Shown here piece by piece: positions 6,278 through 37,196 of a stretch of 64,000 bases of DNA. Positions within the stretch are counted from its first letter, which is position 1, and every line of letters begins with the position of its first letter. This DNA comes from Pseudomonadota bacterium (lineage in GTDB: Bacteria > Pseudomonadota > Gammaproteobacteria > Eutrophobiales > Eutrophobiaceae). The notes beneath the pieces were generated by a model, which did not search any database, was not told the DNA's origin, and worked only from the letters and a program-made list of their open reading frames with translations. Location: NCBI GenBank assembly GCA_013112535.1, contig JABFGI010000003.1:18895-82894 (forward strand), written 5' to 3'. The translations under genes and the position numbers were made by a program.

Positions 6278-8980
6278 ATGATTACAGGATTAGTAAAAAA
6301 AATATTTGGTTCTCGAAATGATCGAGTTATCAAAAAATTAAACAAGACAGTAGCGCAAGTTAACTCCGTTGAAGAAGAGTTTAAGTCTTTAAATGACAGC
6401 GACTTTCCAGAAAAAACAAAACAGTTTAAAGAAAGAATTCAACAAGGAGAAAGTCTGGATAATATTTTGCCTGAGGCTTTTGCATTAGTAAGAGAAGCAG
6501 GCCTGCGAGTATTAAACATGCGCCACTTTGATGTGCAGTTAATCGGCGCAATGGTATTACATAATGGCAATATTGCTGAAATGCGGACAGGTGAGGGTAA
6601 AACACTGGTCGCTACATTAGCAGCATATTTGAATGCCCTGTCAGGTTCTGGTGTTCATGTCATTACAGTTAATGATTATCTGGCGAAACGTGATTCAGAA
6701 TGGATGGGACAGATATATAATTTTCTTGGTTTAACGACAGGAGTAATTGTTAGTGGTCTATCTATAGAAGAAAGAAAAGCTGCTTATCAGTGCGATATTA
6801 CTTATGGTACAAACAATGAATTTGGTTTTGATTATTTGCGTGACAACATGGCGTTCAGTAATGAAGGTCGCGTACAAAGAGGTTTAAACTTTGCCATAGT
6901 TGATGAAGTCGATTCGATTCTTATTGATGAAGCAAGAACGCCATTAGTTATTTCAGGGATGGTCGATGACAAGTCAGATTTATACATAACTATTAATGCA
7001 TTAATTCCGAAGTTAGTTGTGCAAAAAATTGAAGATGGACCGGGTGATTTCACACTGGATGAAAAATCGAAGCAAGCATATTTTACCGAGGACGGCCATG
7101 ATCACATTGAACAACTATTAAGAGAACAAAATGTTCTTAAAGAAGATCAGGCATTATATGATCCGGTTAATATCAGTATTCTTCATCATTTGAATGCCGC
7201 ATTAAGAGCACATCACTTATTTAACAAAGACGTTGATTATATTGTTAAAGATGATGAAATTGTTATTGTTGATGAATTTACAGGTCGTACCATGCAAGGG
7301 CGCCGTTGGTCAGAAGGATTACACCAGGCAATTGAAGCGAAAGAAGGTGTAACGATACAAAATGAAAATCAGACTCTGGCATCAATAACGTATCAAAATT
7401 ATTTTCGCCTGTATTCCAAACTATCAGGTATGACTGGTACTGCAGATACGGAAGCATTTGAGTTTCAATCAATATATGGCCTGGAAGTAGTTATAATCCC
7501 GACTAATATGTCGATGATTCGTGATGATCAAAGCGATATTATCTTTTTAACTGCGAAAGAAAAATACGCAGCTATGATAGAAGATATAAAAGACTGCCAG
7601 TCAAAAGGACAACCCGTATTAGTAGGTACCGCTTCTATCGAAGTGTCAGAGTATTTATCAAATTTACTTAATAAAGAAAATATAAAACATCAGGTATTGA
7701 ATGCCAAATTTCATGAAAGAGAAGCAGAAATTATTGCACAGGCAGGCCAGACAGGTGCAATCACGATTGCAACTAATATGGCAGGCCGCGGTACTGATAT
7801 TGTTTTAGGTGGTAATTATGAATCAGAAATTAAATCATTAAATGAACCTGATCAGAAACAAGTTGATAAAATTAATGAAGAATGGAAACAACGCCATCAA
7901 CAAGTACTTGATAGCGGTGGTCTACACATTATTGGAACTGAACGTCATGAATCGCGCCGCATAGATAATCAACTTCGTGGCCGATCTGGTCGACAGGGCG
8001 ATCCAGGTTCCAGTCGTTTCTATCTATCATTAGAAGATAATTTAATGCGTATTTTTGCGTCTGATCGTATATCTTCAATTATGCAGAAGCTTGGTATGGA
8101 TGAAGGAGAAGCGATTGAATCTAAATTAGTGACCCGTGCAATTGAAAATGCGCAACGAAAAGTTGAAGCACATAATTTCGATATTCGTAAACATCTACTT
8201 GAATATGATGATGTTGCCAATGATCAGCGGAAAGTAATTTATGAACAAAGAAATGAGTTACTTGATGAGGAAGATGTTTCCGAACAAGTCAATGATATAC
8301 GTTCTGAAGTTATTGAAGGGGTGATTGATAATTATATTCCCCGCGGCAGTATGGAAGAAATGTGGGATATCAGTGGTTTAACAGATGCATTTCAACATGA
8401 ATTTGATTTGGTTGTTGATATTGATTCATGGCTTAAGCAGGATAAATCTCTACATGAAGAAGCACTTCGTGAAAAAATTCATGCAGCCATGGAAAAAGTT
8501 GTTAAAGATAAAGAAGAAATGATTACTTCTGAATTGATGCGACGTGTAGAAAAGCAAATTATGCTCGATGTGTTAGACAGGCATTGGAAAGAGCATCTTG
8601 TTAATATGGATCATCTGAGACAAGGTATACAGTTAAGAAGCTTTGCAGGTAAAAACCCAAAACAGGAATATAAGCGTGAAGCTTTTGAATTGTTTGTGCA
8701 AATGCTCGAAGCTATGAAACACGATGTTGTTGTTTTTCTATCAAGAGTTAATATCAGAACTGAACAAGACGTAGAATTGGCTGAAAACCAGGAACATGAA
8801 CAAAACATGAACTTTAATCATGCTTCTGCGCCCAGTAGTCTGAACCCGGGTGTTCCGGAGCAAGCATCGCCGCCTGCGGAAAAACCTTATACACGTAGTA
8901 AACCAAAAGTTGGACGTAATGAACCATGCCCGTGTGGTTCAGGCAAAAAATTTAAGCAATGTCATGGAAGATTAAGTTAA
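6278..8980 (+). CDS. secA: preprotein translocase ATPase SecA
   Basis: 900 aa. N-terminus [25 protein letters not shown]-like motor domains and a C-terminal zinc-binding [14 protein letters not shown] motif. Confidence 0.97.
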
Positions 8981-12847: not shown

Positions 12848-13732
12848 TTAAATAACAGCATTTAAATATGCAGACATTATGTCGGAACCCCACAGCATAG
12901 AAACCCAGCCTGCAATAGCGAGATAGGGGCCAAATGGTATGGCTGTTGATCTGTTGTGAGATTTAAATATCATTAATGTAATGCCAATTAAAGCTCCAAC
13001 TAATGATGACATTATTATAATAAGAGGCAGAAACTGATAACCGAACCATGCACCTAATACAGCTAACAATTTAAAATCACCATGACCCATACCTTCTTTT
13101 CCGGTGATTAATTTAAATGTTATGTAGACGAACCAGAGTATTCCATAACCAAAAATGGCACCTAAAACACTTGATTTTAAGTCAGTGAAAATACTAAATT
13201 TATCCAGATTTAGGATTATACCAAGCCATAAAAAAGGTAGCGTAATATCATCAGGAAGCAATTGATGATCAAAATCAATCATAGTTAAAGCGATCAATGC
13301 CCATGTCAGGCATATAGCAAATAATGCTTGTAATGAAACACCAAAATTATATGCGACTACAGTAACAGTTATTGCACTTACTAGTTCTATCAGAGGATAT
13401 CGAATAGATATTTTATTCTTGCATTTGCTACATTTTCCTTTCAGAAATAAATAGCTTATGACGGGTATATTTTCGATGGCCTTTAGTTGATGATTACAAG
13501 CAGGACAACGTGAGCGTGGCGTGACAAGGTTTAAACTTTTTCTGTCATTGTTATCTTCTGGTGCTTCAAGTTCAAGTAGTTCGCAACATTGTTCTTTCCA
13601 GTCACGCTCCATCATAATGGGCAGTCGGAAAATAACGACATTTAAAAAGCTACCGACAAGTAATCCCAGTATAAAGATAGTGCCGAGATAAAATACAAGG
13701 GAACTATTGAATAATTCGACGATTGCAGACAC
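12848..13732 (-). CDS. pilD: prepilin peptidase / N-methyltransferase PilD (A24 family)
   Basis: 294 aa polytopic membrane protein. Cys-rich cytoplasmic loop (CPACNHQL...CSKCKN) typical of PilD/PulO. Confidence 0.9.
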   Translation of the reverse strand: MSAIVELFNSSLVFYLGTIFILGLLVGSFLNVVIFRLPIMMERDWKEQCCELLELEAPEDNNDRKSLNLVTPRSRCPACNHQLKAIENIPVISYLFLKGKCSKCKNKISIRYPLIELVSAITVTVVAYNFGVSLQALFAICLTWALIALTMIDFDHQLLPDDITLPFLWLGIILNLDKFSIFTDLKSSVLGAIFGYGILWFVYITFKLITGKEGMGHGDFKLLAVLGAWFGYQFLPLIIIMSSLVGALIGITLMIFKSHNRSTAIPFGPYLAIAGWVSMLWGSDIMSAYLNAVI

Positions 13733-13814
13733 GTGTTTTCTCGGTAGATTAGCTAATGACTAAATACTACTGAATAAAAAAACTCTATAAACTACTCAGT
13801 AATTAAATTAAGGT

Positions 13815-15035
13815 TTATTTTACAACTTGTCCCATTTGGAAGATTGGTAGATACATACCAATAACGATGGTACCAATAACGCCGCCTAGAAACGCCATAA
13901 TCAATGGTTCAAGCAAGCTTGTCAGTGCCTCAACTGCATCATCAACTTCCTGCTCATACCAATCAGCGACTTTACCCAGCATCGTATCTATAGCACCGGA
14001 TTCTTCGCCAATAGCCACCATTTGTATGACCATATTTGGAAACAGATTTGTGTCTCGCATGGATGCTTGAAGCTGTGTACCTGTAGCAATTTCATCCTTC
14101 ATTTTCATTGTGGCGTCGTAAAAAACGATGTTGCCGCAGGCGCCAGCTACAGAGGTCATCGCTTCAACCATGGGTGTTCCTGCAGCGAACATGGTTTCCA
14201 GAGTTCTTGCAAAACGAGCAATGGCTCCTTTTTCCATTACTTCTCCAAGAACAGGCATTTTTAATATTGCTCTATCTAAAAATTGTTGAACGGCGGTAGA
14301 TCTCTTTTTTATTTCCATTGCGCCAAAAACTGCACCTCCCGCTACGCCAAAGATGGCCCACCACCAGGCGACAAAAATGTCTGAAGTGTCGACTAATAAT
14401 TGAGTTAGCGCAGGTAAATCAGCACCAAAACTTGAAAATAACTCAGAAAATTGCGGAATAACAAAGATCATTAGAATGGAGACAACAACACCAGCCATTA
14501 CTATTACGGCTGCAGGGTAAAAAAGAGCAGATTTAATTTTAGATTTTAATGCCTCGGTTTTTTCCATGTAAGTCGCAAGTTTATGCAGAATTGCTTCTAA
14601 AATACCGGCATGTTCACCAGCTTCAACCAAGTTGCAGTAAAGATCATTAAACTGTAATGGCCTTTTCTTAAGGGCGTCTGTCAGATTATTACCGGCTTCT
14701 ACATCAGCTTTAATGCCCAAAACTAACTCTTGCATCCCGGCATTTTCATGGCCGCGACCAACAATTTCAAAAGCCTGAACTAATGGAACACCAGATGACA
14801 TCATTGTAGCTAACTGACGGCTAAAGACTGTAATGTCCTTCGGAGTGATTTTGCTACTACCACCACCCAATAGAGGTTTTGACTTTTTCTTAACTTTAAG
14901 TGGATTAATGCCCTGGCGTCTTAGTGTCGCTTTAACCAAGGCCTCACTTTGTCCGCTCACTTCACCCTTAACTCGTTTGCCAGTTTTGTCCATGCCTTCC
15001 CAGGCATACATATCTGCTTTTTTTGCTTCAGCCAT
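13815..15035 (-). CDS. pilC: type IV pilus inner-membrane platform protein PilC (GspF family)
   Basis: 406 aa with two GspF repeats. N-terminus MAEAKKADMYAWEGMDKTGKRVKGE resembles PilC. Lies between pilB and pilD. Confidence 0.9.
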   Translation of the reverse strand: MAEAKKADMYAWEGMDKTGKRVKGEVSGQSEALVKATLRRQGINPLKVKKKSKPLLGGGSSKITPKDITVFSRQLATMMSSGVPLVQAFEIVGRGHENAGMQELVLGIKADVEAGNNLTDALKKRPLQFNDLYCNLVEAGEHAGILEAILHKLATYMEKTEALKSKIKSALFYPAAVIVMAGVVVSILMIFVIPQFSELFSSFGADLPALTQLLVDTSDIFVAWWWAIFGVAGGAVFGAMEIKKRSTAVQQFLDRAILKMPVLGEVMEKGAIARFARTLETMFAAGTPMVEAMTSVAGACGNIVFYDATMKMKDEIATGTQLQASMRDTNLFPNMVIQMVAIGEESGAIDTMLGKVADWYEQEVDDAVEALTSLLEPLIMAFLGGVIGTIVIGMYLPIFQMGQVVK

Positions 15036-15040
15036 AATAT

Positions 15041-16756
15041 TTACTCTACTGTTACTCGGTTAACTTCAGTTAAACTGGTAATACCATCTGCTGCTTTTTG
15101 TAAGCCCGAACGGCGGATATCCCATATTCCTTCAGATGCGGATTGGTCAGCCAATTGCACTGCATTAGCTCCCTCTATAATTAATCGCTTCATATCATCC
15201 GAAATAGGCATTACTTGATAGATACCTGCTCGCCCCTTATATCCCGGGTTATCATCAGTTATTTCGCCTGGTTCAAACAAACTGATACCCTTTTCAATCA
15301 TGTCATCAGTGTATCCTTCATCTTTTAAGGCATCATCTGGCATTTCCAATGGCACACGATTATTTGGATTCAAGCGTCGCAATAGTCGTTGTGCTGTAAT
15401 CAAATTAATGCTGGTCGCAACGGCAAATGCCTGGATGCCCATATCTTGTAATCGAGTCAAAGTTTGTGGGCCATCATTAGTATGCAAGGTAGACATAACC
15501 ATGTGACCTGTCTGTGCTGCTTTAACTGCAATTGAAGCTGTGCCCAAATCACGCACCTCTCCAACCAGGATAATATCCGGATCTTGTCGTAGAAAAGCTT
15601 TTAAGGCTTTTTCAAATGTCATACCAGTTCGTTCATCTACCTGAACCTGATTAACTCCAGGTAAGTTAATTTCAACCGGATCTTCAGCTGTAGAAATATT
15701 AATATCTACCTGGTTTAATATATTGATTCCTGTGTATAGCGACACGGTTTTACCACTACCTGTTGGCCCAGTAACGAGAAACATGCCATAGGGTTTATGT
15801 AGGTTGCTAAGGAACATTTCTTTTTGATGATCTTCATAACCAAGCTGATCGATTTGTAATGCAGCAGCATCAGAATCGAGTATACGCATACAGCTTTTTT
15901 CGCCAAATAGAGTAGGGCAGGTGCTAACACGAAAATCGATAGATTTCGATTTCGAAAGCTTAAGTTTAATACGACCGTCTTGTGGAACACGTCGTTCTGA
16001 CACATCCAGTCGAGACATCACCTTTATACGAGCAGCGATTTTCATACTAAGACTCATTGGTGGTTTAGCGACTTCCTGTAATACACCATCTATACGAAAA
16101 CGTACGCGATATGATTTTTCGTATGGTTCAAAGTGTAAATCTGAAGCACCCTTCTTAATCGCGTCCAGTAAACATTTATTAACAAAACGTACAACGGGAG
16201 CATCGTCAACATCGGAGTCATCCTGTTCTTGAGGACCGTCTTCGGCGACTTCAAGATCATCAAGATCATCAAAATCCTCATCATCCATGTCTCCCAGACC
16301 ACCATCGGCAGCTTCTATTGCTTTTTCAATAGTTTTAGCAAGTTTGTCTTCTTCGACAACAATGGCATCAGTACTTAGACTTGTGGCAAATTTAATTTCA
16401 TCAAGTGCTTGAATATTAGTTGGATCTGAGACTGCGACAGCAAGTCGTTTGCCACGTTTAAAAATTGGGAGAGCATTGTGTTTTTTAATAAGGTCTTCTT
16501 TGACTAGTTTGATAACATCTGGATCAATTTCAAGAAGATCAATATCTACCAGTGGCGCGCCAAATTCCTGAGCTGCTGCTAATGCAATAGTACTACTGGG
16601 AACAAGTTTATTTTCAACGATCAGACTGACAAAAGGTTTCTTCTTCTTTATAGAATCTTGAAGCGTACTTTGAGCCTTTTCTTCATCAAGCAAGCCATCA
16701 AGTACAAGCTTTCGTGCTAGCCCACTAAGATTTATTTTTTTTGCTGGAGTCGACAT
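15041..16756 (-). CDS. pilB: type IV pilus assembly ATPase PilB (GspE family)
   Basis: 571 aa. Walker A GPTGSGKT, His/Asp boxes and N-terminal GSPII domain. Confidence 0.92.
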   Translation of the reverse strand: MSTPAKKINLSGLARKLVLDGLLDEEKAQSTLQDSIKKKKPFVSLIVENKLVPSSTIALAAAQEFGAPLVDIDLLEIDPDVIKLVKEDLIKKHNALPIFKRGKRLAVAVSDPTNIQALDEIKFATSLSTDAIVVEEDKLAKTIEKAIEAADGGLGDMDDEDFDDLDDLEVAEDGPQEQDDSDVDDAPVVRFVNKCLLDAIKKGASDLHFEPYEKSYRVRFRIDGVLQEVAKPPMSLSMKIAARIKVMSRLDVSERRVPQDGRIKLKLSKSKSIDFRVSTCPTLFGEKSCMRILDSDAAALQIDQLGYEDHQKEMFLSNLHKPYGMFLVTGPTGSGKTVSLYTGINILNQVDINISTAEDPVEINLPGVNQVQVDERTGMTFEKALKAFLRQDPDIILVGEVRDLGTASIAVKAAQTGHMVMSTLHTNDGPQTLTRLQDMGIQAFAVATSINLITAQRLLRRLNPNNRVPLEMPDDALKDEGYTDDMIEKGISLFEPGEITDDNPGYKGRAGIYQVMPISDDMKRLIIEGANAVQLADQSASEGIWDIRRSGLQKAADGITSLTEVNRVTVE

Positions 16757-27626: not shown

Positions 27627-29240
27627 ATGAATAAATCAAATATGATGATTTCAAGGAAAACCAAAGCAGTTGACTGGCGTGCGTTAGAGTATTTTAATTA
27701 CTATCGATTATTGCTCTCGGGCCTTTTTATCATCCTTGTGCATATCGGTCAGTTGCCGCAACCACTTGGAAGTCTGGATTCAGATTTTTTCTCGATAGTT
27801 AGTCACCTTTATTTCCTCGTGGCTCTGGTTTTCGGCTGGTTCATCCATCAGCAACTTCCGCAATTTAATATTCAAATAGTTCTGCATGTTCTTATTGATA
27901 TTACTATGCTAAGTTTTTTGATGTATGCAAGTGATGGTTTGAGTAGTGGTTTTGGTTTACTACTTATAATAGTAGTTGCAGGCGGTAGTATTCTGCGTGA
28001 AGGAAAAGTGGCCATACTTTTCGCTGCAATTGCCGCTCTTTTTGTATTGGGTCATGAATTGTATCTCCAGTTTTTTCGATACTACGTTACTGTAAATTAC
28101 ACTCATGCAGGAATGCTTGGTGCGACTTTTTTTATTACTGCATTTATAGGAAATCTATTAGCTGCTCGAGTAAGGGAAACAGAAGCACTGGCTGAGCAAC
28201 AAGCGATAGAAATAAATGAATTGGCGAAATTGAATGAACATATAGTTCAACGCATGCAATCAGGCATTATTGTTCTTGATAGCGACATGAATGTTTTGCT
28301 TATGAACGAATCTTCAAAACAGTTAATAGGGCTCCAGAAAGGCGATACAAACAAAGTCTTTTATTTTATAGATAATTACCTGAAGTCTTGTATAAATGAC
28401 TGGCTAAACAATAATGGAAAACAGAATGTGATAATTCAATTACAGGAAGATGAAACTGAATTACAGGTGTCGTTTATCAAGTTAACGCTTGTTTCGAGTT
28501 TTCATATTCTTATTTTTCTTGAAAACATAGCAAGAATCAGACAGCGAGCCCAACATTTGAAGCTGGCATCACTAGGCAGACTGACTGCAAGTATTGCACA
28601 TGAAGTAAGAAATCCATTAGGTGCGATCAATCACGCGGGCCAGCTATTGAAAGAGTCCGATACGATTAGCCAGGAAGACAAACGATTGACCGAAATTATT
28701 AATGATCATTCTTTACGTGTTAATAATATTATTGAGAATGTATTAAGTGTTAGTCGTAGAGAAAGAGCGACGGCTGAAATTTTTGAAATAATTCCATGGT
28801 TAAAAAAAATAATTAGTGAATTTGAATCAAGATATAATTTAAACAGCGGCGATATTGATTTAGAAATAAAGAAAAAAAATATTTCTGTTAGAATCGATCC
28901 ATCGCAATTACATCAGGTTATATGGAATCTTTGTGAAAATGCGATGCGTTATAGTCAGGGTAAACCTATAATTACCTTGTCTTGCAATATAAGTGATGAA
29001 ACACAACGGCCCTATATTGATATAATTGATTATGGTTCAGGAATTTCAGAGGAAATTAGAGAACACCTGTTTGAACCTTTTTTTACGACAGAGACGAAAG
29101 GTTCCGGTTTAGGGTTATATTTGGCTCGTGAACTCTGTGAAGCTAACCAGGCAAGTTTGAGTTTACATTCAACATCAAATAAAGGTACAACATTCAGATT
29201 AAGTTTTATGCATATTAATAAACAGTATGAGCTGATATAG
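27627..29240 (+). CDS. pilS: type IV pilus sensor histidine kinase PilS
   Basis: 537 aa. Six N-terminal TM helices, H-box (SIAHEVRNPL) and HATPase_c domain. Immediately upstream of pilR and next to the pilin genes. Confidence 0.85.
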   Translation: MNKSNMMISRKTKAVDWRALEYFNYYRLLLSGLFIILVHIGQLPQPLGSLDSDFFSIVSHLYFLVALVFGWFIHQQLPQFNIQIVLHVLIDITMLSFLMYASDGLSSGFGLLLIIVVAGGSILREGKVAILFAAIAALFVLGHELYLQFFRYYVTVNYTHAGMLGATFFITAFIGNLLAARVRETEALAEQQAIEINELAKLNEHIVQRMQSGIIVLDSDMNVLLMNESSKQLIGLQKGDTNKVFYFIDNYLKSCINDWLNNNGKQNVIIQLQEDETELQVSFIKLTLVSSFHILIFLENIARIRQRAQHLKLASLGRLTASIAHEVRNPLGAINHAGQLLKESDTISQEDKRLTEIINDHSLRVNNIIENVLSVSRRERATAEIFEIIPWLKKIISEFESRYNLNSGDIDLEIKKKNISVRIDPSQLHQVIWNLCENAMRYSQGKPIITLSCNISDETQRPYIDIIDYGSGISEEIREHLFEPFFTTETKGSGLGLYLARELCEANQASLSLHSTSNKGTTFRLSFMHINKQYELI

Positions 29241-29242
29241 AA

Positions 29243-30571
29243 ATGTCTCAACTTGCGCTAATTATCGATGATGAACCAGATATTCGGGAGTTGTTGCAGA
29301 TAACGCTTCAGCGAATGAAGATTGATTGCCATTGTGCTGAAAATCTTGCTATGGCCAGAACATTATTGAATCAATATAAATTTGATTTGTGTTTGACTGA
29401 TATGAAGTTACCTGATGGTGATGGTGTTGAGTTTGTTAATGAAGTACAAACGGATTATCCGCATATCCCTATAGCAGTAATAACGGCACATGGAAGTATG
29501 GACAGTGCTATTCAGGCACTCAAATACGGCGCTTTTGATTTTTTAACGAAACCGATTGATTTAAATTCATTAAGAACAATAGTTCAAAATGCGATTAGTT
29601 CAGATCCTGATTCAAATGCGTCAATAGCAACGATTATTGGTGAGAGTGATTCATTTAAAGAATTACGTAAAACTATTAAGAAAGTTGCGCGTAGTCAGGC
29701 ACCAATATATATCAGCGGTGAATCAGGTACGGGCAAGGAACTGGTCGCTAAAATGATCCACGATAGTGGGCCTCGAGCGGACAAACCATTTGTTCCGGTT
29801 AATTGCGGCGCCATTCCGCATGAGTTAATGGAAAGTGAATTTTTCGGTCATAAAAAAGGAAGTTTCACAGGTGCAGATTCAGATAAAGAAGGTTTATTTC
29901 TTGCGGCGGATGGAGGCACTTTATTTCTTGATGAAGTAGCTGATTTGCCATTACATCTTCAGGTTAAGTTATTACGTGCCATACAGGAAAAACGCATTCG
30001 GCCTGTAGGTGCGCAGGAAGAAATAGAAATTGACATACGGATATTATGCGCAACACATAAAGATCTTTCTGTCATGGTGAATCAGGAAAGCTTTCGTCAG
30101 GATCTGTATTATCGAATTAATGTTATTCAGATTCATGTGCCGGCTTTAAGAGAACATCTGGAAGATATTGCGTTATTGGTCGAACACATTCTTCAACAAG
30201 TATCGGACAAGTCGGGTGAAGAGAGAAAACATTTGTCTGAGGAAGCTTTAAATAAACTTCAGTCTTATAGTTTCCCTGGGAACGTTCGTGAACTTGAAAA
30301 TATTCTGGAGCGGGCTCTGACGCTTGCAGAAAGCGAATTAATCATGCCAGAAGATTTATTGCTGAATAACAAAGAAGCAGAACATAAAAACGAATTTAAA
30401 GAAAATAACAGCTCTGCCTCTTTAACTCATCAGCTTGATGAAATCGAACGAAACGCGATTTTAGACGTACTTGAGCAGACTAAATGGAATCGAACTGCCG
30501 CTGCAAAAATATTGGGCTTAAGTTTGCGTGTTTTGCGATATAGGTTAGAAAAATATGGCCTTGATAAATAA
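29243..30571 (+). CDS. pilR: sigma-54-dependent response regulator PilR (NtrC family)
   Basis: 442 aa. REC domain (D at DMKLPDGDG), AAA+ sigma-54 activator core with GAFTGA-type loop (GSFTGA) and a C-terminal Fis-type HTH. Confidence 0.9.
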   Translation: MSQLALIIDDEPDIRELLQITLQRMKIDCHCAENLAMARTLLNQYKFDLCLTDMKLPDGDGVEFVNEVQTDYPHIPIAVITAHGSMDSAIQALKYGAFDFLTKPIDLNSLRTIVQNAISSDPDSNASIATIIGESDSFKELRKTIKKVARSQAPIYISGESGTGKELVAKMIHDSGPRADKPFVPVNCGAIPHELMESEFFGHKKGSFTGADSDKEGLFLAADGGTLFLDEVADLPLHLQVKLLRAIQEKRIRPVGAQEEIEIDIRILCATHKDLSVMVNQESFRQDLYYRINVIQIHVPALREHLEDIALLVEHILQQVSDKSGEERKHLSEEALNKLQSYSFPGNVRELENILERALTLAESELIMPEDLLLNNKEAEHKNEFKENNSSASLTHQLDEIERNAILDVLEQTKWNRTAAAKILGLSLRVLRYRLEKYGLDK

Positions 30572-30595
30572 CTAATATCGTTTATTACCGTTTAG

Positions 30596-30997
30596 TTACA
30601 AACCTGCACCAGCTTGACACTGAGCAGCAGTTGCACCGCCAGCAGTTCCAGACGTTGCAGTATATGTTACAGTTGCGGAAGTGACTGTAGCGACAACAGT
30701 ACAAGATCCTTCAGCATAGGTTACGGTTGCCGCCGCCGCGCTTTCAGAAACACTGGCTAAAGTGAGAGCGGCATCAGTAACAGCATTTAATTCCGTACAG
30801 CCTACACCGGTATCTACACAGACTTGAGATTGCGATACATAAGGGTTAATCCCTTTCATTGCTGCGCCACCGTGTGATTCAGCGACATATGCACGATATG
30901 ATGGAATCGCCACTGCAGCAAGAATACCGATAATTGCAACAACGATCATAAGTTCGATCAAGGTAAAACCTTGTTGATATGTGTTTTTATACTTCAT
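30596..30997 (-). CDS. pilA: type IVa major pilin paralog 1 (PilA-like)
   Basis: Start set at [10 protein letters not shown]|[22 protein letters not shown], preceded by an AAGGAG SD 7 nt upstream. Class III signal (G|F, E+5). C-terminal Cys pair forming a disulfide loop. The ORF-track N-terminal extension was rejected. Confidence 0.85.
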
Positions 30998-31200
30998 TGA
31001 TCCGCTCCTTCTACTCTTCACAACTGTTTTTTTATTGTTCAGTGTAAACAGATTCAACGCTGTTGGTATTTCTAGCGTTTAACCCCCTATGGTTGTGAGT
31101 AGATGAGTATTTGATGTCCCTTTGTCAAAGCAAACGTCCTGATGTAATTGGCATTTAAAACATCTAAACACATACTTAATAATAATTTTTATTCTTATTT

Positions 31201-31231
31201 AAAAAGACCCGCATTTGCGGGTCTTTTTAGT
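31201..31231 (-). terminator. rho-independent terminator between the two pilin genes
   Basis: AAAAAGACCCGCAAATGCGGGTCTTTTT is a perfect GC-rich stem flanked by A/T runs. It lies just downstream of pilin paralog 2 on the minus strand. Confidence 0.75.
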
Positions 31232-31251
31232 AACACTTTTCTAAAGTCTAA

Positions 31252-31665
31252 TTATAGACCTGCGCCAGCCTGACACTGAGCAGCGGTCGCACCACCACCA
31301 CCACCGGTGGTTGCAGTAAAGGTTACAGCTGCTGCAGTAACTGTTGCGACAACCTGACAAGAACCTTCGTTATAGGTTACGGTTGCAGCAGCAGCGTTTT
31401 CAGAAACGCTAGCTAGGGTAACGTTAGCATCAGTGGTCGCATTTAATTCAGTACAACCAACACCGGTTTCTACACAAACTTGAGCTTGAGATACGAAAGG
31501 TCCAGCACCTTTCATTGCAGCACCACCATGTGATTCAGCAACATAGGCACGGTATGATGGAATTGCGACTGCCGCAAGAATACCGATAATCGCAACAACG
31601 ATCATTAATTCGATCAGGGTAAAACCCTGTTCGCTTTTGCTATTCATTTTTTTCATTTGTTTCAT
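31252..31665 (-). CDS. pilA: type IVa major pilin paralog 2 (PilA-like)
   Basis: MKQMKKMNSKSEQG|[34 protein letters not shown] 7 nt before the first ATG; an internal ATG start is also possible. About 85% identical to paralog 1 over the mature protein. Confidence 0.85.
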   Translation of the reverse strand: MKQMKKMNSKSEQGFTLIELMIVVAIIGILAAVAIPSYRAYVAESHGGAAMKGAGPFVSQAQVCVETGVGCTELNATTDANVTLASVSENAAAATVTYNEGSCQVVATVTAAAVTFTATTGGGGGATAAQCQAGAGL

Positions 31666-31736
31666 TATTAGTTCTCCGTTATTTAAACTGATTACAAAAA
31701 CTATAGTTTTTACCCCAGTTTGAGGTGATTACTGTT

Positions 31737-31754
31737 AAGCAGGCCTCATGCCAG
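31737..31754 (-). promoter_or_regulatory. sigma-54 (RpoN) -24/-12 promoter for pilin paralog 2
   Basis: Minus strand reads cTGGCATgaggccTGCTT, i.e. GG-N10-GC with spacing and flanks close to TGGCAC-N5-TTGCW. About 70-85 bp upstream of the pilin ATG. pilS-pilR are adjacent. Confidence 0.55.
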
Positions 31755-31857
31755 TTCGGTAGAAATATCGATATATTAAAAATTATTAATTTATTCAATT
31801 AGTTATAGTTTTTTTGAAAAATAGTTTGATTAGTTTTTAATCTATATACGAAGACTA

Positions 31858-31893
31858 CTGTTGTCAAAAAATGACAACTTTGTCATTTTTTTA
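31858..31893. promoter_or_regulatory. three alternating TTGTCA/TGACAA (TGTC-core) half-sites, a candidate PilR upstream activating sequence
   Basis: ctgTTGTCAaaaaaTGACAActtTGTCAttttttt lies about 110-140 bp upstream of the sigma-54 -24 element. Published PilR sites are TGTC-containing repeats. Confidence 0.35.
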
Positions 31894-32079
31894 CTATAAA
31901 TCTTATTAACTTAATCTAATTCAAATTGATTAGAGCGCAATTGTGAATTTGATAACATAAGTATTTATTGAATTATATTGTCAGTCATACATGATAGATT
32001 TATTTCTTGAGTTGAAAAATGATTTTAATCAAGAGTTATGTCGAATATAAACCAACTGAATATTTAAATAACATTGTAA

Positions 32080-32787
32080 ATGCAATCAAAACGACACGAA
32101 TTAAAGTTCTATCTGAATGAGATTCAATCTGAAAGATCAATACATCAATTAAACTCGTTGATGGATGTCGATGCATACTGCAAAAATCAACAAAGTTATC
32201 GTGTTCGTAGTCTTTATTTTGATTCGTATGATGATGAGTGCCTGTACGAAAAACAGTCAGGAAACTTATTAAGAAAAAAAATTAGATTACGTACCTACGA
32301 TGGTGGTGGTAATGAACCTGTGAAATTTGAAATAAAACGAAAACAGGGGCAAATTGTAAAAAAAGACGTCGCTATAATTACCAAAGAAGAAGCTGAACAG
32401 GTATGTCTAGGTAATTTTTCAGTATTATTGAATAAAAATAATGCTGTCTTGAATGAAATTTACACTACTTTTGTTACTAAACTCTATAAACCTAAAGTGA
32501 TCGTTGAATATAATCGGACTGCTTTTGTATTACCTGTCTCGAATATAAGAGTGACGTTAGATCAGGATCTAAGTTCGAATATTAATCACCTTGATCTGTT
32601 TTCACCTGTAAATAGTATGATGCCGGTGATTCTTGAAGGTAAACAAATACTGGAAATAAAGTACGATGATTTTTTTCCCGGCTATTTAAAGAAAGTATTA
32701 TCATCACTTAGTTCGGAAAGAATGGCCATCAGCAAATACACGTTAGCCAGACGATTCCATAAAGTCCATAAATGGGAGGACAATTAA
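32080..32787 (+). CDS. VTC-domain protein (CYTH-like / polyphosphate-polymerase-domain family)
   Basis: 235 aa. HELKFYL...RVRSLYFDS...KKIRLRTY...KFEIKRK alternating basic/acidic beta-strand motifs are typical of the triphosphate-tunnel VTC/CYTH fold. Overlaps the next ORF by 16 nt. Confidence 0.7.
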   Translation: MQSKRHELKFYLNEIQSERSIHQLNSLMDVDAYCKNQQSYRVRSLYFDSYDDECLYEKQSGNLLRKKIRLRTYDGGGNEPVKFEIKRKQGQIVKKDVAIITKEEAEQVCLGNFSVLLNKNNAVLNEIYTTFVTKLYKPKVIVEYNRTAFVLPVSNIRVTLDQDLSSNINHLDLFSPVNSMMPVILEGKQILEIKYDDFFPGYLKKVLSSLSSERMAISKYTLARRFHKVHKWEDN

Positions 32788-33488
32788 TCATGGATCAAGT
32801 TACCTTTGCAGATGTACTGCAAAAAAGTTTCATTGCAATGTCAATGGGTAGTACAGACAGGATCACTACGTTAAATATTTTATTGAATATATCAATGTCG
32901 TTTTTGATTGGTATGTTTATATTTTATATTTATAAAAAAACCTATCAGGGTGTTTTATATCAACGCAGTTTTAATATTTCACTGGTCCTGGCAAGTACGG
33001 TGACATCCATGATTATTATGACTATCAGTGGCAACTTGATTCTTTCCCTGGGAATGGTTGGCGCATTGTCAATTGTTCGTTTCAGAACGCCCGTCAAGGA
33101 TAGCATGGATTTAATCTTCTTATTTTGGGCAATAAGTGTTGGTATAGCTAATGGCGTCGGCTATTTTAATATCTCTATTGTAGGTTCGATCATGATCGCA
33201 ATATTTATGTTGCTGTTGACTCGTTCCGGTAAAGGTGTAGCTGATACGTTTTTGTTGGTGCTTCAATTGTCTGATACATCAAAGGAAGAAAACATTCTTG
33301 GTGAAATTCAGAAACAAACCGACTTGTGTTCAATAAAATCAAAAACAGTTTCAGATACAGGGACAGAGATTACTTTAGAAGTAAAAGTAAAGCAGGGGCA
33401 AACTGAGTTCATGAACAGCCTGCAAGCAGATGCAGGTGTTGTTCGTGCTACTCTTGTTTCTTATGATCAGGATTTATCTTCAGTATAG
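32772..33488 (+). CDS. DUF4956-like polytopic membrane protein (VTC-associated)
   Basis: 238 aa with about four TM helices and an SIVRFRTPVKD motif. Transcriptionally coupled to the VTC gene. Confidence 0.55.
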   Translation: MGGQLIMDQVTFADVLQKSFIAMSMGSTDRITTLNILLNISMSFLIGMFIFYIYKKTYQGVLYQRSFNISLVLASTVTSMIIMTISGNLILSLGMVGALSIVRFRTPVKDSMDLIFLFWAISVGIANGVGYFNISIVGSIMIAIFMLLLTRSGKGVADTFLLVLQLSDTSKEENILGEIQKQTDLCSIKSKTVSDTGTEITLEVKVKQGQTEFMNSLQADAGVVRATLVSYDQDLSSV

Positions 33489-34488
33489 AAGTCTAATCTT
33501 GTTTTCTATAGTAAAGAAACTGTGCTTCTCTAGCGTCTTTATAACGACGAGCACAGTTGCTGTCGCCGTAACAAATGGTACGGGTACAGATTATTGTATA
33601 AATCAGGGCTTCAAAAATACATACTATTTACTGGATTATAAAGATATCACTGCAGCCTCTGTTTTTTTTCAAGAAATCTCCTTGAAAAATACAAGCATGG
33701 AATCACGACTAGTGATTAAAAAAGGAACAAGAGCTAGAGGTATTACATATTTCGACGATAATAATCTGACATTACTAACAGCAAAAAAAGAGTTAATTCA
33801 TGTAATAGATAATAATCTACCGGAATTTAGAGAGGATAAAGAACAAATCATTTTTTATGATCGAACCTTGCTAAATGAGAGTTCAAAAAGTTTTGTAGTA
33901 AAAAATTATAACAGGAAACTTACGCCTTTCGATAAACACCCTTTGTTTGGTCGAATAAAACGAAAAGAAAGGCCCGTGCTTATGGAATTGCTTTCAGGTA
34001 TAGGTATAAGCAAATTACAGTCGATTTCAGGAGTTATAAATATTAACTCCGATGAAGAGGTTAAATTAATTACGCATTTTGCAATACCGTATGGTGCTTT
34101 CACGTTTAGTATATTCAATCTGGATGATTTTGGAGTGCCGAATACTTCTTTTTTATTAAAGTTTGAAATGTTTTCTAACGAGGACAACTCTCTTACAGTG
34201 TTCGAAAAAGAAAGTCTTAACAAGCTTTTTTGTCAGGTTAATAAGCAGTTTCAAATTTCTTTCCCACATGCCGAATCATCTCCATGGTTTGGCTATGCTG
34301 AATATCATAAATTAGCATCAGAGATTTTACCAAGTCGTACATTATTCCGAAAATACCCATTGCTTTTTTCTGTTGGGCAGATTGTTTGTCTGAGCTTTAT
34401 CGGTTTTCTTTTTATTTATATTGTTTTAGGAAGATACTCAAGGCGAGACAATTTTCGTAAAGTTTCAAAATCTAAAGTTTATTTATGA
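33430..34488 (+). CDS. hypothetical protein with C-terminal TM anchor (start uncertain; alternative ATG near 33697)
   Basis: Long ORF with no recognisable domain. C-terminal hydrophobic helix (IVCLSFIGFLFIYIVLG). Its stop overlaps the CotH start (ATGA). Confidence 0.45.
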   Translation: MQVLFVLLLFLMIRIYLQYRSLILFSIVKKLCFSSVFITTSTVAVAVTNGTGTDYCINQGFKNTYYLLDYKDITAASVFFQEISLKNTSMESRLVIKKGTRARGITYFDDNNLTLLTAKKELIHVIDNNLPEFREDKEQIIFYDRTLLNESSKSFVVKNYNRKLTPFDKHPLFGRIKRKERPVLMELLSGIGISKLQSISGVININSDEEVKLITHFAIPYGAFTFSIFNLDDFGVPNTSFLLKFEMFSNEDNSLTVFEKESLNKLFCQVNKQFQISFPHAESSPWFGYAEYHKLASEILPSRTLFRKYPLLFSVGQIVCLSFIGFLFIYIVLGRYSRRDNFRKVSKSKVYL

Positions 34489-37196
34489 GAGTTTATCGTC
34501 CCCGTCATTGTCCCTTCTGGCCTGTGTTTTTAGCATTATTATTACTGGCTGCTTTAAGTAGTTTTATTTTTGGCGGCGTTACCGAAATGATGAAGTATGA
34601 AAAGGCAACGACAACAGCGATCAGGTTTAACTATACGCTTGATAGTTTCCATCATTTTATTAATGAATATATAACACGACAATATCAAAAACTTACAGTA
34701 AAACCCTTACCCGAACAGACCAACTTACCTTCATTTTATTTATATACAGATGAGCGAGATTTAGAGTCATTAGAATCAAACTTACCTGCAAGTGGTAAAG
34801 TCGAATTTAAAAAAAGTCACATAAGAATAGATAAACCAAGTTTTTCAAGTGAAGCGGAATTTCGCTTTCGAGGAGGAATGGATTTACATTGGTTATATGA
34901 AAAAAAATCATTAAGAATAAAGTTGCCACAATTTAGTACCTATTTGAATGAGCGCCAGTTTAATTTGGTCAACCCATCAACAATTCATACAGTTACTGAT
35001 TGGGTAACTTATGATATGTCGCGTTCGATAGGGCTATTGACGCCAGACTATTTTCCGGCACGTTTATTCATTAATAATGAAACAAACGGACTACACTTTT
35101 TTTTAAGTAAAGTAGATGAATCATTTTTGCGTAAGAACAATAGAATGCCTGGAAGTATTTATTCCGGAGATACTATCTATACGCCAAATCCTTTTGGTTT
35201 GGATGAGGGGATAGGTGAGAAAGTTTTTGCCCATAATGGGAGGCCCTCTTTATGGTTTGACGATAGATTATGGAAGAAAGATGCTTCAAGAAATATGGAA
35301 TCAACTGAAAGTCGTGAAGATATAAAGTTATTCATTAAGTCTGTAAACGAACCAGATCCATTGGTTTTTATGGAAAAATTTGATACTTACTTTGATAAAA
35401 AACAATTCTATCGCTTTTGGGCATTAGATAAATTAGTTGGTAGTAACCATCATGATTTGTTTCATAATCACCGTATTTATTTTGACCCTTATTTAGGTAA
35501 ATTTGAACCGATTGAGTGGGATGTTCGATTCTGGACAATTGCTAAATCACTTTCAGTCACTCCTTTTTTTAAACAAATTCTGTTAAACCCTGTATTGAGA
35601 TATGAGCATGATCTTGTACTTTATGATCTTTGGAGAAAATTTAATGTCGATAATGTTAATGACATGATTGATGGGGCAGATAATAGTATAAAAAATGAAT
35701 TAGCGGCGGATCCTTATCGACAACAGCCTGACGAATACCTTAAATTTGGTGGGTTTGGTAAAGCTTTGCCTTTTACTATGGATGAATATACGAATGCTAT
35801 TAAATCGTTGAAAAAAATTTATAGCTTTAGATATGGACTTATCGAGCAAAGGTTAAATTTTAATACTTCCTATTTTCAAATTGAAAAAATAACTGAGAAA
35901 GAGAGCAGGGTTTCTATTGCATTGTCCGGAAATAGCCCCATTGAATTTAATCCATGGACGATTATTCCAAAGCCTATCCATAAAGATGTTAAGTTATTTC
36001 GTGTCTATAATAATAAGTTGTATCCTGTATTAGATAAAGAGCAATCGGATCGATTGTATCCGGGAATATCAATAATGGAAGGTTATAGATCTTCTAATGT
36101 ATCAAATGGTATGGAAACAAGAGTAATGGAGTCATACAGACAATCGCCATTACATTATCAATATTTAATAAAAGGAGTAAACAGCTCCGACTTAATTGAA
36201 ACTAAAAAACTGACGGGGACAAATTCAATTACTTCAAATGTAGTCGCAATCGAAAATGTAGAACAATTACCTGATGATGTAAGTACAGTCTCTTTACATC
36301 CCTGGGAATTATTAACACAGGAAGAGATTTCAACGAGAGAGATCGTGTTGTCGGGCGAAATAGAAGTTAATCAGGATCGCTCTTTCACAAAAGAACAAAC
36401 AGTGAAGATATTACCCGGGACCGTGTTTAAACTGGCAAGAGCCAGTTCATTGTATTTTTATGGGAAAGTGATAGGAAAAGGAACAGAAACTTTACCGATT
36501 AAATTTGAACAAAAAGAACCAGGTCAGGCCTGGGGCAGTATCGTTATTCAGGGTAAAGAAGCTTCCGGTAGTATTTTGAGCTATATCAGCGTTAGTGGTG
36601 GATCTACAGCAAAACGTAACCTGATTGCCTATCCAGGCCAGTTGAATATTCACGATGTAAATTCTTTTCAACTAGATCATTGTTTTATTAGTAATAATTC
36701 TGTGGGCGATGATGCTTTGCATGTCGCCTACAGTAATGGCTCTATTGATTATTGTGAGTTCAATAATACAGCTTTTGATGCATTGGATATGGATATTGTT
36801 GATGTTTCAGTAACAAATTCTCATTTTTCAAATATTGGCAATGATGCAATTGATTTGATGAATTCAAAAGCAAATATTAGTTATGTTGATATTAATGGGA
36901 CGGGTGATAAATGTATTTCAGTGGGCGAGGCAAGTGAAGTAAACGTTGAACATAGTCAACTTAAAGCATGTTCGATTGGAATAGCAGTTAAAGATCAATC
37001 AAAATTACACGTTGATGATATTGTATTTTCAGTTGAACAAGGAAACGCTATAGCACTTTATCGTAAGAACTCACGTTACAGTAATGGAGGTGAAGTATAC
37101 GGAGAAAGGCTTTATGGAATTAATGAGCAGGATATAAACGTCGGTGATTATTCCGTAAATAATATTAAACAAAGTGCATATCACTCTTTTAAATAA
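34485..37196 (+). CDS. CotH-family atypical protein kinase with N-terminal signal anchor and C-terminal right-handed parallel beta-helix (PbH1) repeats
   Basis: 903 aa. CotH-like stretch (LRIKLPQ, NERQFNLVNP, HNHRIYFDPYLGKFEPIEWDVRFW). The C-terminus has 22-aa periodic repeats: NNSVGDDALHVAYSNGSI / NNTAFDALDMDIVDVSV / SNIGNDAIDLMNSKANI / NGTGDKCISVGEASEVNV. Confidence 0.75.
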   Translation: MRVYRPRHCPFWPVFLALLLLAALSSFIFGGVTEMMKYEKATTTAIRFNYTLDSFHHFINEYITRQYQKLTVKPLPEQTNLPSFYLYTDERDLESLESNLPASGKVEFKKSHIRIDKPSFSSEAEFRFRGGMDLHWLYEKKSLRIKLPQFSTYLNERQFNLVNPSTIHTVTDWVTYDMSRSIGLLTPDYFPARLFINNETNGLHFFLSKVDESFLRKNNRMPGSIYSGDTIYTPNPFGLDEGIGEKVFAHNGRPSLWFDDRLWKKDASRNMESTESREDIKLFIKSVNEPDPLVFMEKFDTYFDKKQFYRFWALDKLVGSNHHDLFHNHRIYFDPYLGKFEPIEWDVRFWTIAKSLSVTPFFKQILLNPVLRYEHDLVLYDLWRKFNVDNVNDMIDGADNSIKNELAADPYRQQPDEYLKFGGFGKALPFTMDEYTNAIKSLKKIYSFRYGLIEQRLNFNTSYFQIEKITEKESRVSIALSGNSPIEFNPWTIIPKPIHKDVKLFRVYNNKLYPVLDKEQSDRLYPGISIMEGYRSSNVSNGMETRVMESYRQSPLHYQYLIKGVNSSDLIETKKLTGTNSITSNVVAIENVEQLPDDVSTVSLHPWELLTQEEISTREIVLSGEIEVNQDRSFTKEQTVKILPGTVFKLARASSLYFYGKVIGKGTETLPIKFEQKEPGQAWGSIVIQGKEASGSILSYISVSGGSTAKRNLIAYPGQLNIHDVNSFQLDHCFISNNSVGDDALHVAYSNGSIDYCEFNNTAFDALDMDIVDVSVTNSHFSNIGNDAIDLMNSKANISYVDINGTGDKCISVGEASEVNVEHSQLKACSIGIAVKDQSKLHVDDIVFSVEQGNAIALYRKNSRYSNGGEVYGERLYGINEQDINVGDYSVNNIKQSAYHSFK

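Follow-up and report, generated by a model that had tools for sequence, protein, structure and literature searches.

Tandem pilA paralogs are common in bacteria, being known from Legionella, Xylella, Kingella, and Pseudomonas stutzeri; what the second gene contributes differs between species. Here, we describe such a pair of type IV pilin genes on the minus strand of contig JABFGI010000003.1, which belongs to an uncultured gammaproteobacterial lineage; the stretch analyzed, referred to as the window, comprises 64 kb, and all positions are counted from its first nucleotide (nt). The closest characterized case is the pilA2-pilA1 locus of Legionella pneumophila, where, as in the window, tandem full-length genes for major-pilin-like proteins of ~136 amino acids (aa) lie on the same strand (PMC13170364). 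The two Legionella genes are described as monocistronic, the upstream gene encodes the major pilin forming the pili, and the downstream pilin was undetected on the cell surface under standard conditions, yet affects biofilm (PMC13170364). The spacing and identity of the Legionella genes are given there as 196 base pairs (bp) and 72%, compared with 254 bp and 86% in the window; PilS and PilR are present in Legionella too, but no other pilus genes adjoin its locus (PMC13170364), in contrast to the pair described here, which abuts pilSR. Of the two loci, conserved copy-specific leaders and concerted evolution have been shown for the present one only.

In Kingella kingae, as here, the major pilin gene (pilA1) is followed by a paralog (pilA2), whose product is a shaft-incorporated minor pilin; it is dispensable for piliation, but binds the major pilin and was recovered with purified pili (PMC12607826). 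The two Kingella genes are only 50% identical and are reported to be co-transcribed from a single promoter (PMC12607826), whereas a strong, conserved terminator lies between the genes in the window. Deletions of the paralogs pilA1, pilA2, and pilA3 in Xylella fastidiosa lead to mostly opposing phenotypes (PMC9956873). The pilE/pilS system of Neisseria resembles the present locus in that gene conversion takes place between pilin sequences of one genome and in that conserved N- and C-terminal segments flank a variable center. However, in Neisseria silent cassettes that lack a promoter and are truncated at the 5' end serve as donors in frequent, G-quadruplex (G4)-dependent exchange, whereas the genes described here are complete and look like expressed genes, their exchange appears to be rare, and neither a G4 motif nor a cassette is present in the window. 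The pilA gene of Pseudomonas aeruginosa has a -24/-12 promoter with TGTC-type enhancer repeats ~100 nt upstream, and PilS, a kinase with a six-helix membrane domain, and the NtrC-type PilR belong to the same system; the window has a corresponding -24/-12 element, candidate enhancer repeats, and kinase-activator pair. The P. aeruginosa pilA is, however, a single-copy gene divergent from pilBCD and distant from pilSR, whereas the pair in the window is convergent with pilSR and 14 kb away from pilBCD. Finally, the tandem, related pilAI and pilAII genes of P. stutzeri are reportedly ~55% identical, i.e., far more diverged than the genes described here, and the downstream gene is said to be weakly expressed, to be unable to replace the upstream gene, and to antagonize transformation.

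Seen against these systems, the locus is ordinary in kind, as a tandem second pilA is already known from other bacteria. What seems to be new is long-term concerted evolution limited to the mature-coding segment beside conserved copy-specific regulation; this assessment draws on a partial literature search, in which no description of concerted evolution of tandem full-length pilins was found, and is not a proof of novelty. Pilins are likewise not mentioned in a survey of concerted evolution in prokaryotes (PMC6053082). With a probability of roughly 0.7, we read the locus as an old pilin duplication in which copy 1, the upstream gene, would be an insulated, PilR/sigma-54-driven major pilin gene, copy 2, the downstream gene, would be controlled separately, and the mature parts would evolve in concert.

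Identity and age of the pilin pair

According to their sequences, the two genes (Table 1) constitute a tandem pair of type IVa major-pilin (PilA-family) genes. In both predicted prepilins, the leader ends in QG with Gly at position -1 and is followed by FTLIELM with Phe at +1 and Glu at +5, the arrangement of a class III signal peptide; the leader of copy 1 consists of MKQMKKMNSKSEQ plus this Gly, and its N-terminus reads MKQMKKMNSKSEQG directly ahead of FTLIELM. The prepilin N-methylation motif was recognized in both copies (PF07963, E-values 6e-10 and 1e-10), TIGR02532 was matched as well, and copy 1 aligns over its full length with the solved type IV pilin PilA 9laa_A (residues 6-137 against 5-138 of the chain, E-value 1.4e-35). 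Among the NCBIfam models, none of the pilin equivalogs scored above cut-off and the generic prepilin domain alone passed. All 10 pilin sequences of the five genomes compared below have kept the four Cys, and their mature lengths of 123-131 aa, like their Cys content, are of the PilA type, for which a C-terminal Cys pair (D-region) and a size of ~120-160 aa are characteristic.

The initial annotation had described two complete genes with ~85% identical products, which agrees with a BLASTP identity of 83% over 134 aa (E-value 1e-70) for the prepilins and with 86% protein and 80% DNA identity for the mature parts, which are of equal length. Also in line with this description, the N-termini and the C-terminal tails are the same: the copies do not differ at mature residues 1-39 or in the 14 residues at the C-terminal end, and all differences are found in the central part. 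One copy-specific peptide stretch, AGPFVSQAQVCVE, has a 13-residue counterpart in the other copy. The product of copy 2 is identical to two proteins from metagenome-assembled genomes at NCBI (MBL1141651.1 and NOG60119.1). For copy 1, the start codon varies in public annotations, giving proteins of 131, 134, and 137 aa (NOG60120.1, MBL1141652.1, and Logan); of the possible starts, the first ATG is the one best spaced from a Shine-Dalgarno sequence, and the orthologs have kept it. A cluster look-up for strain variants of the pilins returned merely alternative-start versions of the same genes and no population-level alleles. Leaders of 10 and 14 residues had been called unusually long for type IVa pilins. 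The lengths themselves hold, the latter if the first ATG of copy 1 is taken as its start, but leaders of ~7 to 19 residues were read among related pilins of the family, where some start codons are uncertain, and 9laa was aligned with ~12 residues ahead of the cleavage Gly; the lengths are thus normal for this family. Both copies are under purifying selection, with ratios of nonsynonymous to synonymous divergence (dN/dS) of about 0.09-0.18 between orthologs, and both genes can be regarded as functional.

Relatives of the locus were found by a scan of species-representative genomes and by look-ups of the nearest database proteins. Four other genomes (L001, L011, L015, and L017) contain the same neighborhood in the order CotH, an unnamed open reading frame (ORF), DUF4956, VTC, pilin copy 1, pilin copy 2, pilR, pilS, sucC, and sucD; L014 and L016 are a single shorter contig from another sample, whose pilin genes are identical to those of L015. 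Between the window and these four relatives, PilR is 78-81% and SucC 87-92% identical at the amino acid level, with a dS of 1.25-2.5 for pilR and 1.5-2.1 for sucC. Over all pairs of the five genomes, the identities are 74-81% and 85-92%, respectively, and the dS of the flanking genes (1.25-3.4) is saturated. Judged by these values, the five loci represent distinct genomes and not strains of one species.

The pair had initially been taken for a recent duplication, a view that the comparison overturns. In the window, the mature parts of copies 1 and 2 differ at 20% of their nucleotides (dN 0.10, dS 0.77), and the similarity between the copies spans the segment from the first mature codons to the stop codon, whereas the leaders and the regions upstream and downstream are unrelated. 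These unrelated parts are conserved by copy: the first-copy leaders begin with MKQMK[KR] in all five genomes, the second-copy leaders follow the pattern M[KN][YN][KN][NH]x[YS]QQG and end in QQG in every genome, and the enhancer-like repeat, the sigma-54 promoter, the 5' untranslated region (5'UTR), the intergenic block, and the terminator after copy 1 are orthologous by copy across the five loci as well. Because copy-specific leaders and flanks are orthologous across genomes whose flanking genes are saturated at synonymous sites, the duplication must be old, and on this evidence it predates the common ancestor of the five genomes.

Predicted control of the two copies

A sigma-54 promoter had been predicted for the upstream copy only, and both halves of this prediction agree with the sequence comparison. 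The -24/-12 element upstream of copy 1 is close to the consensus TGGCAC-N5-TTGCW, with the 10-nt spacing between GG and GC, and its TGGCAT and CTGCT portions are invariant in all five orthologous loci. As GG-N10-GC motifs are not enriched in the window (26 observed versus 31 expected), the assignment of this site rests on its position and on its invariance in the five loci. Overlapping TGACAA/TTGTCA inverted repeats situated ~105-140 nt upstream of the -24 element form a candidate PilR binding site; a TGTC-type motif is known for PilR of P. aeruginosa. Given the conserved -24/-12 element and repeats, and with a PilS-type kinase and an activator of the NtrC class encoded by the adjacent genes, control of copy 1 by PilR and sigma-54 would be the natural assumption. 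A sigma-70-like sequence, TTGACA-N17-TAGATT (31839-31867, minus strand), which agrees with the consensus at 10 of 12 positions and extends into the final half-site of the enhancer-like element, is probably fortuitous, since its TTGACA is not conserved in the orthologs.

The predicted sigma-54 transcript would start at about the beginning of a conserved 5'UTR block, which is invariant or nearly so in the five loci in spite of the synonymous saturation of the neighboring genes. Its consensus fold has 12 pairs with zero compensatory changes, and an RNA element was therefore not called, the two hairpins being conserved but lacking such changes. The block could represent an mRNA-stabilizing 5' stem-loop or a protein-binding site.

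Between the copies, the strong terminator claimed by the initial annotation was recovered. The hairpin consists of seven G/C-rich pairs with an A-U extension, a 4-nt loop, and a five-T tail, and none of 200 shuffled sequences folded as stably. A consensus promoter and terminator scan missed this real hairpin, probably because its A and T tracts pair and thereby use up the T tail, and the sigma-70 matches of the same scan were at chance level (11 found versus 9.2 expected). A search of the whole 64 kb against Rfam at gathering thresholds retrieved no family, but only sub-threshold, terminator-like matches around the hairpin. The stem is identical in four of the loci. In L017 (6436-6700), whose intergenic region exceeds that of the other genomes by ~190 nt, the ancestral hairpin has degenerated, but the stop codon of copy 1 is immediately followed by another strong terminator, AAAAAACCCGCATACATTCTATGCGGGTTTTTTT, of new origin. 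That a terminator was regained after the old one had been lost suggests selection for termination between the two genes. A strong hairpin separates the copies in more distant tandem pairs (L002, L003, and L004), too.

Upstream of copy 2, a putative promoter region of ~110 nt is conserved. The sigma-70-like sequence TTGAAT-N17-TAAAAA proposed initially is present in it, but conservation among the orthologs is limited to the -35-like hexamer and does not include the -10. The -35-like hexamer is overlapped by the inverted repeat AACGCT-N12-AGCGTT, a candidate operator or small RNA hairpin, both arms of which have changed together in L017 (AACGTT..AACGTT). An RNA element was not called here either, as this is a single compensatory change; the consensus fold energy is weak (-2 kcal/mol). 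A sigma-54 site before copy 2 was looked for, and GG-N10-GC is absent from all five intergenic regions. The GG-N8-GC sequence CATAGGGGGTTAAACGCT, considered as a substitute, was rejected, being out of register, variably spaced between the orthologs, and changed from GC to GT in L017. In one of the distant tandem pairs (L002, 2007-2124), it is copy 2 that is preceded by a sigma-54 site close to the consensus, TGGCATGGCACTTGCA, which begins 43 nt upstream of the start codon and follows a strong terminator; which copy bears the sigma-54 promoter therefore differs between lineages.

Alternatively, the pair might be a read-through operon, in which copy 2 lacks a promoter and is made only from those sigma-54 transcripts that pass the hairpin, resulting in a low, fixed ratio of copy 2 to copy 1. 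Such an arrangement would be compatible with the region before copy 2, which offers neither a convincing conserved -10 nor a sigma-54 site, with the codon usage of copy 2, which is typical of an expressed gene, and with the co-transcription of pilA1 and pilA2 from one promoter reported for K. kingae (PMC12607826). However, the transcripts would have to pass a hairpin of -20.4 kcal/mol with a five-T tail, L017 has a new terminator besides the decayed old one, and the ~110 nt conserved before copy 2 include the -35-like hexamer with its overlapping inverted repeat and the both-sides change; L. pneumophila pilA2 and pilA1, moreover, are described as monocistronic (PMC13170364). Owing to the conserved upstream block and the turnover of the terminator, we favor with some confidence the view that copy 2 uses a promoter of its own and regard the read-through operon as unlikely.

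The initial annotation had also suggested differential expression of the two genes. This part is consistent with the regulatory asymmetry conserved in five genomes, an indirect argument drawn from sequence. The effective number of codons is lower for copy 1 than for copy 2 in the window (44 versus 54) and in L015 (38.5 versus 44), and orthologs of copy 1 have a dS of 0.51-0.61, below the 0.83-0.99 of copy 2 orthologs, which gives a weak hint that copy 1 may be more highly expressed.

Concerted evolution of the mature parts

In contrast to the leaders and flanks, the mature parts cluster by genome, although divergence alone would have placed all first copies in one group and all second copies in another. 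In the globular part, the paralogs within a genome are 82, 88, and 78% identical, compared with 43-72% for positional orthologs between genomes. Quartet-informative sites group the sequences by genome, by copy, or otherwise at 44, 3, and 3 positions for the window and L017, at 62, 7, and 3 for the window and L011, at 59, 5, and 3 for L001 and L017, and at 26, 6, and 2 for the window and L001. In a neighbor-joining tree, the paralogs of L001, L011, and L017 pair by genome with 100% bootstrap support. Shared insertions point in the same direction: the two copies of L017 have two insertions and a different C-terminal tail in common, and those of L001 a two-residue insertion. In L001, the 3' flank of copy 2 additionally shares ~45 nt with that of copy 1 (7070-7150 versus 6418-6530), without the terminator hairpin, which may represent either a conversion tract or an original duplication unit that reached past the stop codon. 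The simplest reading of these data is an old duplication followed by several independent homogenizations through gene conversion, each limited to the mature-coding segment; that the mature parts cluster by genome and not by copy points to repeated conversion.

The window and L015 differ from this pattern, as their pilins group by copy at 18 sites versus 8, with bootstrap values of 88 and 72%. Near the beginning of the globular domain, both genomes have the copy-specific residues AGPF..E..NAT in copy 1 and INPY..D..NAV in copy 2. The by-copy sites of this comparison are concentrated at mature nucleotides 117-193 and the by-genome sites at 222-299 (position test, p = 0.03, with 26 sites only). 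Most simply, the last full conversion in the lineage of the window would predate its split from L015.

Several observations weigh against the interpretation favored here, that is, an old pair with separate control of the copies and repeated conversion of their mature parts. No full homogenization appears to have taken place since the split of the window and L015, and the longest exact tract shared by the copies in the window is 17 nt, so that conversion in this genome is now unlikely. Most of the by-genome sites fall into codons in which the amino acid varies, and strictly synonymous sites agree only weakly (e.g., six by genome, six by copy, and none otherwise for the window and L011); selection for matching proteins could thus contribute to the by-genome signal. 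The dS between pilin orthologs (0.5-1.0) is far below that of pilR and sucC in the same genome pairs, which could result from strong codon bias or from the exchange of the cassette between lineages, and either would complicate the dating of the duplication. As to expression, the difference in codon bias between the copies is absent in three of the five genomes, the -10 of the putative copy 2 promoter lacks the conservation of the -35-like hexamer, and some read-through into copy 2 is possible.

The weakness of the synonymous signal would also fit an explanation without any gene conversion, by which both proteins are selected to match the same partners (each other in co-assembly, the minor pilins, and PilS) and acquire parallel substitutions. 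The large share of amino-acid-changing sites among the by-genome sites agrees with this proposal, and the dS between paralogs (0.46-0.83) is not clearly below that between orthologs of the closest genomes (0.51-0.99), noting that dS values of 0.5-1 over ~124 codons are noisy. However, it would take dozens of identical parallel changes, including the shared indels of L017 and L001; synonymous sites supporting the by-genome grouping outnumber those grouping by copy in most comparisons (13 versus 3 for L001 and L017, 8 versus 1 for L011 and L017); and in L001 the similarity reaches into the non-coding 3' flank. We therefore consider parallel selection as the sole cause improbable.

Regarding exchange between the copies, the initial annotation had envisaged a reservoir for recombinational antigenic variation. 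Its recombination component survives in the form of the repeated past gene conversion suggested by the by-genome clustering; a programmed or frequent variation system does not. Searches of the 64-kb window with the pilin by tblastn and blastn matched the two complete genes only, and no motif of four runs of three or more G was found anywhere in the window. A Neisseria-type silent-cassette system was ruled out on these grounds, as was an invertible pilin switch of the Moraxella type, the two genes being direct and not inverted repeats. RecA-dependent exchange usually needs tracts longer than 17 nt. That a recent tandem duplication has left near-identical copies as a reservoir for frequent antigenic variation is thus very improbable: same-strand homologous genes at this distance can recombine, past exchange is evident, and the by-genome sites of the window and L015 are clustered, but the copies differ by a dS of 0.77 at 80% nucleotide identity, the duplication is common to five genomes with saturated flanking genes, both genes are complete, have their own ribosome-binding sites, and are under purifying selection, and truncated cassettes, G4 motifs, and exact tracts beyond 17 nt are all missing from the window. 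Inter-copy exchange is, to judge from these comparisons, real but rare and takes place on an evolutionary timescale.

Genomic setting and meaning of the pair

The regulatory genes pilS and pilR converge on the pilin pair, and this order is shared by all orthologous loci. PilS contains the 6TM_PilS domain (E-value 2.4e-34), HisKA, and HATPase_c, and PilR a Response_reg receiver, Sigma54_activat, and HTH_8, a Fis-type helix-turn-helix domain, i.e., the composition of an NtrC-class activator paired with a PilS-type kinase; no PilR-specific NCBIfam model scored above cut-off. The stop codons of pilR and copy 2 are separated by 24 nt, and no convincing terminator was found 3' of copy 2 in the window (30560-30600), L015, L001, or L017. 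Copy 2 transcripts may consequently run antisense into the convergent pilR, where they could act as a feedback on the regulator. Divergent from the pair, genes for a VTC-domain protein, a DUF4956 protein, a 352-aa unnamed ORF, and a 903-aa CotH-family protein (32080-37196, plus strand) are syntenic in all five genomes. The pilus assembly genes pilBCD are also contained in the window. Within the set of L003, L004, and L005-L013, the pilin pair of Cellvibrionales-type loci is divergent from pilBCD, and Shewanella has just one pilA, immediately ahead of these genes; among the loci compared, a pair that adjoins pilSR and is located away from pilBCD occurs in the clade of the window only.

Table 1. 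Features of the tandem pilin locus and of the associated pilus genes in the 64-kb window.
Feature	Position	Strand	Description
Pilin copy 1 (upstream)	31252..31665	-	ORF of 137 aa; 14-residue leader ending in Gly, then FTLIELM; Glu at +5; four Cys
Pilin copy 2 (downstream)	30596..30997 (from its own ATG)	-	ORF of 133 aa; 10-residue leader
Sigma-54 type -24/-12 promoter TGGCATgaggcCTGCT	31738..31753	-	GG-N10-GC; begins 88 nt before the copy 1 start codon
Enhancer-like element TAGTAAAAA-ATGACAAAGTTGTCATTTTTTGACAAC	31860..31895	-	Overlapping TGACAA/TTGTCA inverted repeats; almost unchanged across the five loci
Conserved 5'UTR block of copy 1	31684..31726	-	43 nt; small hairpins CCUC..GGGG and AAAAACUAUAGUUUUU, the latter a perfect palindrome; starts at about the predicted sigma-54 transcript start
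Intrinsic terminator AAAAAGACCCGC-AAAT-GCGGGTCTTTTT	31201..31228	-	-20.4 kcal/mol; z -6.3
Conserved non-coding block upstream of copy 2	30998..31110	-	~110 nt conserved; putative promoter
Inverted repeat AACGCT-N12-AGCGTT	31079-31056	-	Overlaps the -35-like TTGAAT
-35-like TTGAAT	31057-31052	-	Conserved in orthologs
-10 candidate TAAAAA	31034-31029	-	A/T-rich; not conserved in orthologs
Strong Shine-Dalgarno AAGGAG of copy 2	31010-31005	-	
pilS (27627-29240), pilR (29243-30571)	27627..30571	+	Convergent with the pilins; same order in all orthologous loci
pilB (15041-16756), pilC (13815-15035), pilD (prepilin peptidase; 12848-13732)	12848..16756	-	T2SSE with MshEN; T2SSF; Peptidase_A24 with N-terminal domain

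If the pair is an old duplication with separately controlled copies, as we favor, it could work as follows. PilR would bind the TGACAA/TTGTCA repeats and activate the sigma-54 promoter of copy 1, whose transcript would start with the conserved structured leader and stop at the strong hairpin, forming a self-contained unit that encodes the main pilus subunit. The terminator would insulate copy 2 from this promoter, and copy 2, equipped with its own upstream block, ribosome-binding site, and leader, would be produced at a different, probably lower or conditional, level. Its product might serve as an alternate major pilin or, assembling together with copy 1, as a shaft subunit of low abundance; by analogy to Legionella pilA2-pilA1, copy 1 is probably the major pilin and copy 2 an alternate or low-level one. 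Between the start of the mature N-terminus and the conserved C-terminus, occasional gene conversion within the chromosome would have homogenized the mature segments independently in several lineages, with the regulatory flanks and leaders remaining copy-specific throughout. Of this scheme, the gene structures, the conservation of every signal, the age of the duplication, and the by-genome clustering of the mature parts are shown by the sequences, whereas we infer the PilR/sigma-54 dependence, the efficiency of termination, and, for copy 2, both its role and its relative expression.

A more far-reaching idea, which we regard as tentative, is that the pair is a maintained design of one filament protein under two control circuits. 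With the invariant N-terminal helix and the C-terminal tail as anchors, conversion would then keep a PilSR-independent copy 2 compatible with co-assembly, and the shared N-terminus may also keep it compatible with sensing by PilS. The surface patch AGPF..E..NAT versus INPY..D..NAV would escape homogenization and carry a functional difference, and copy 2 transcripts running antisense into pilR for want of a terminator would feed back on the circuit.

Since the organism is uncultured, the practical impact of these findings is small. For annotators and for evolutionary analyses, the locus nevertheless holds a warning, as a high identity of pilin paralogs does not imply a recent duplication. It separates cleanly into a conserved regulatory asymmetry and repeatedly homogenized coding parts. 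With regulation conserved and coding sequence homogenized in this way, the second copy would therefore be kept for the timing or amount of its expression and not for a very different protein.

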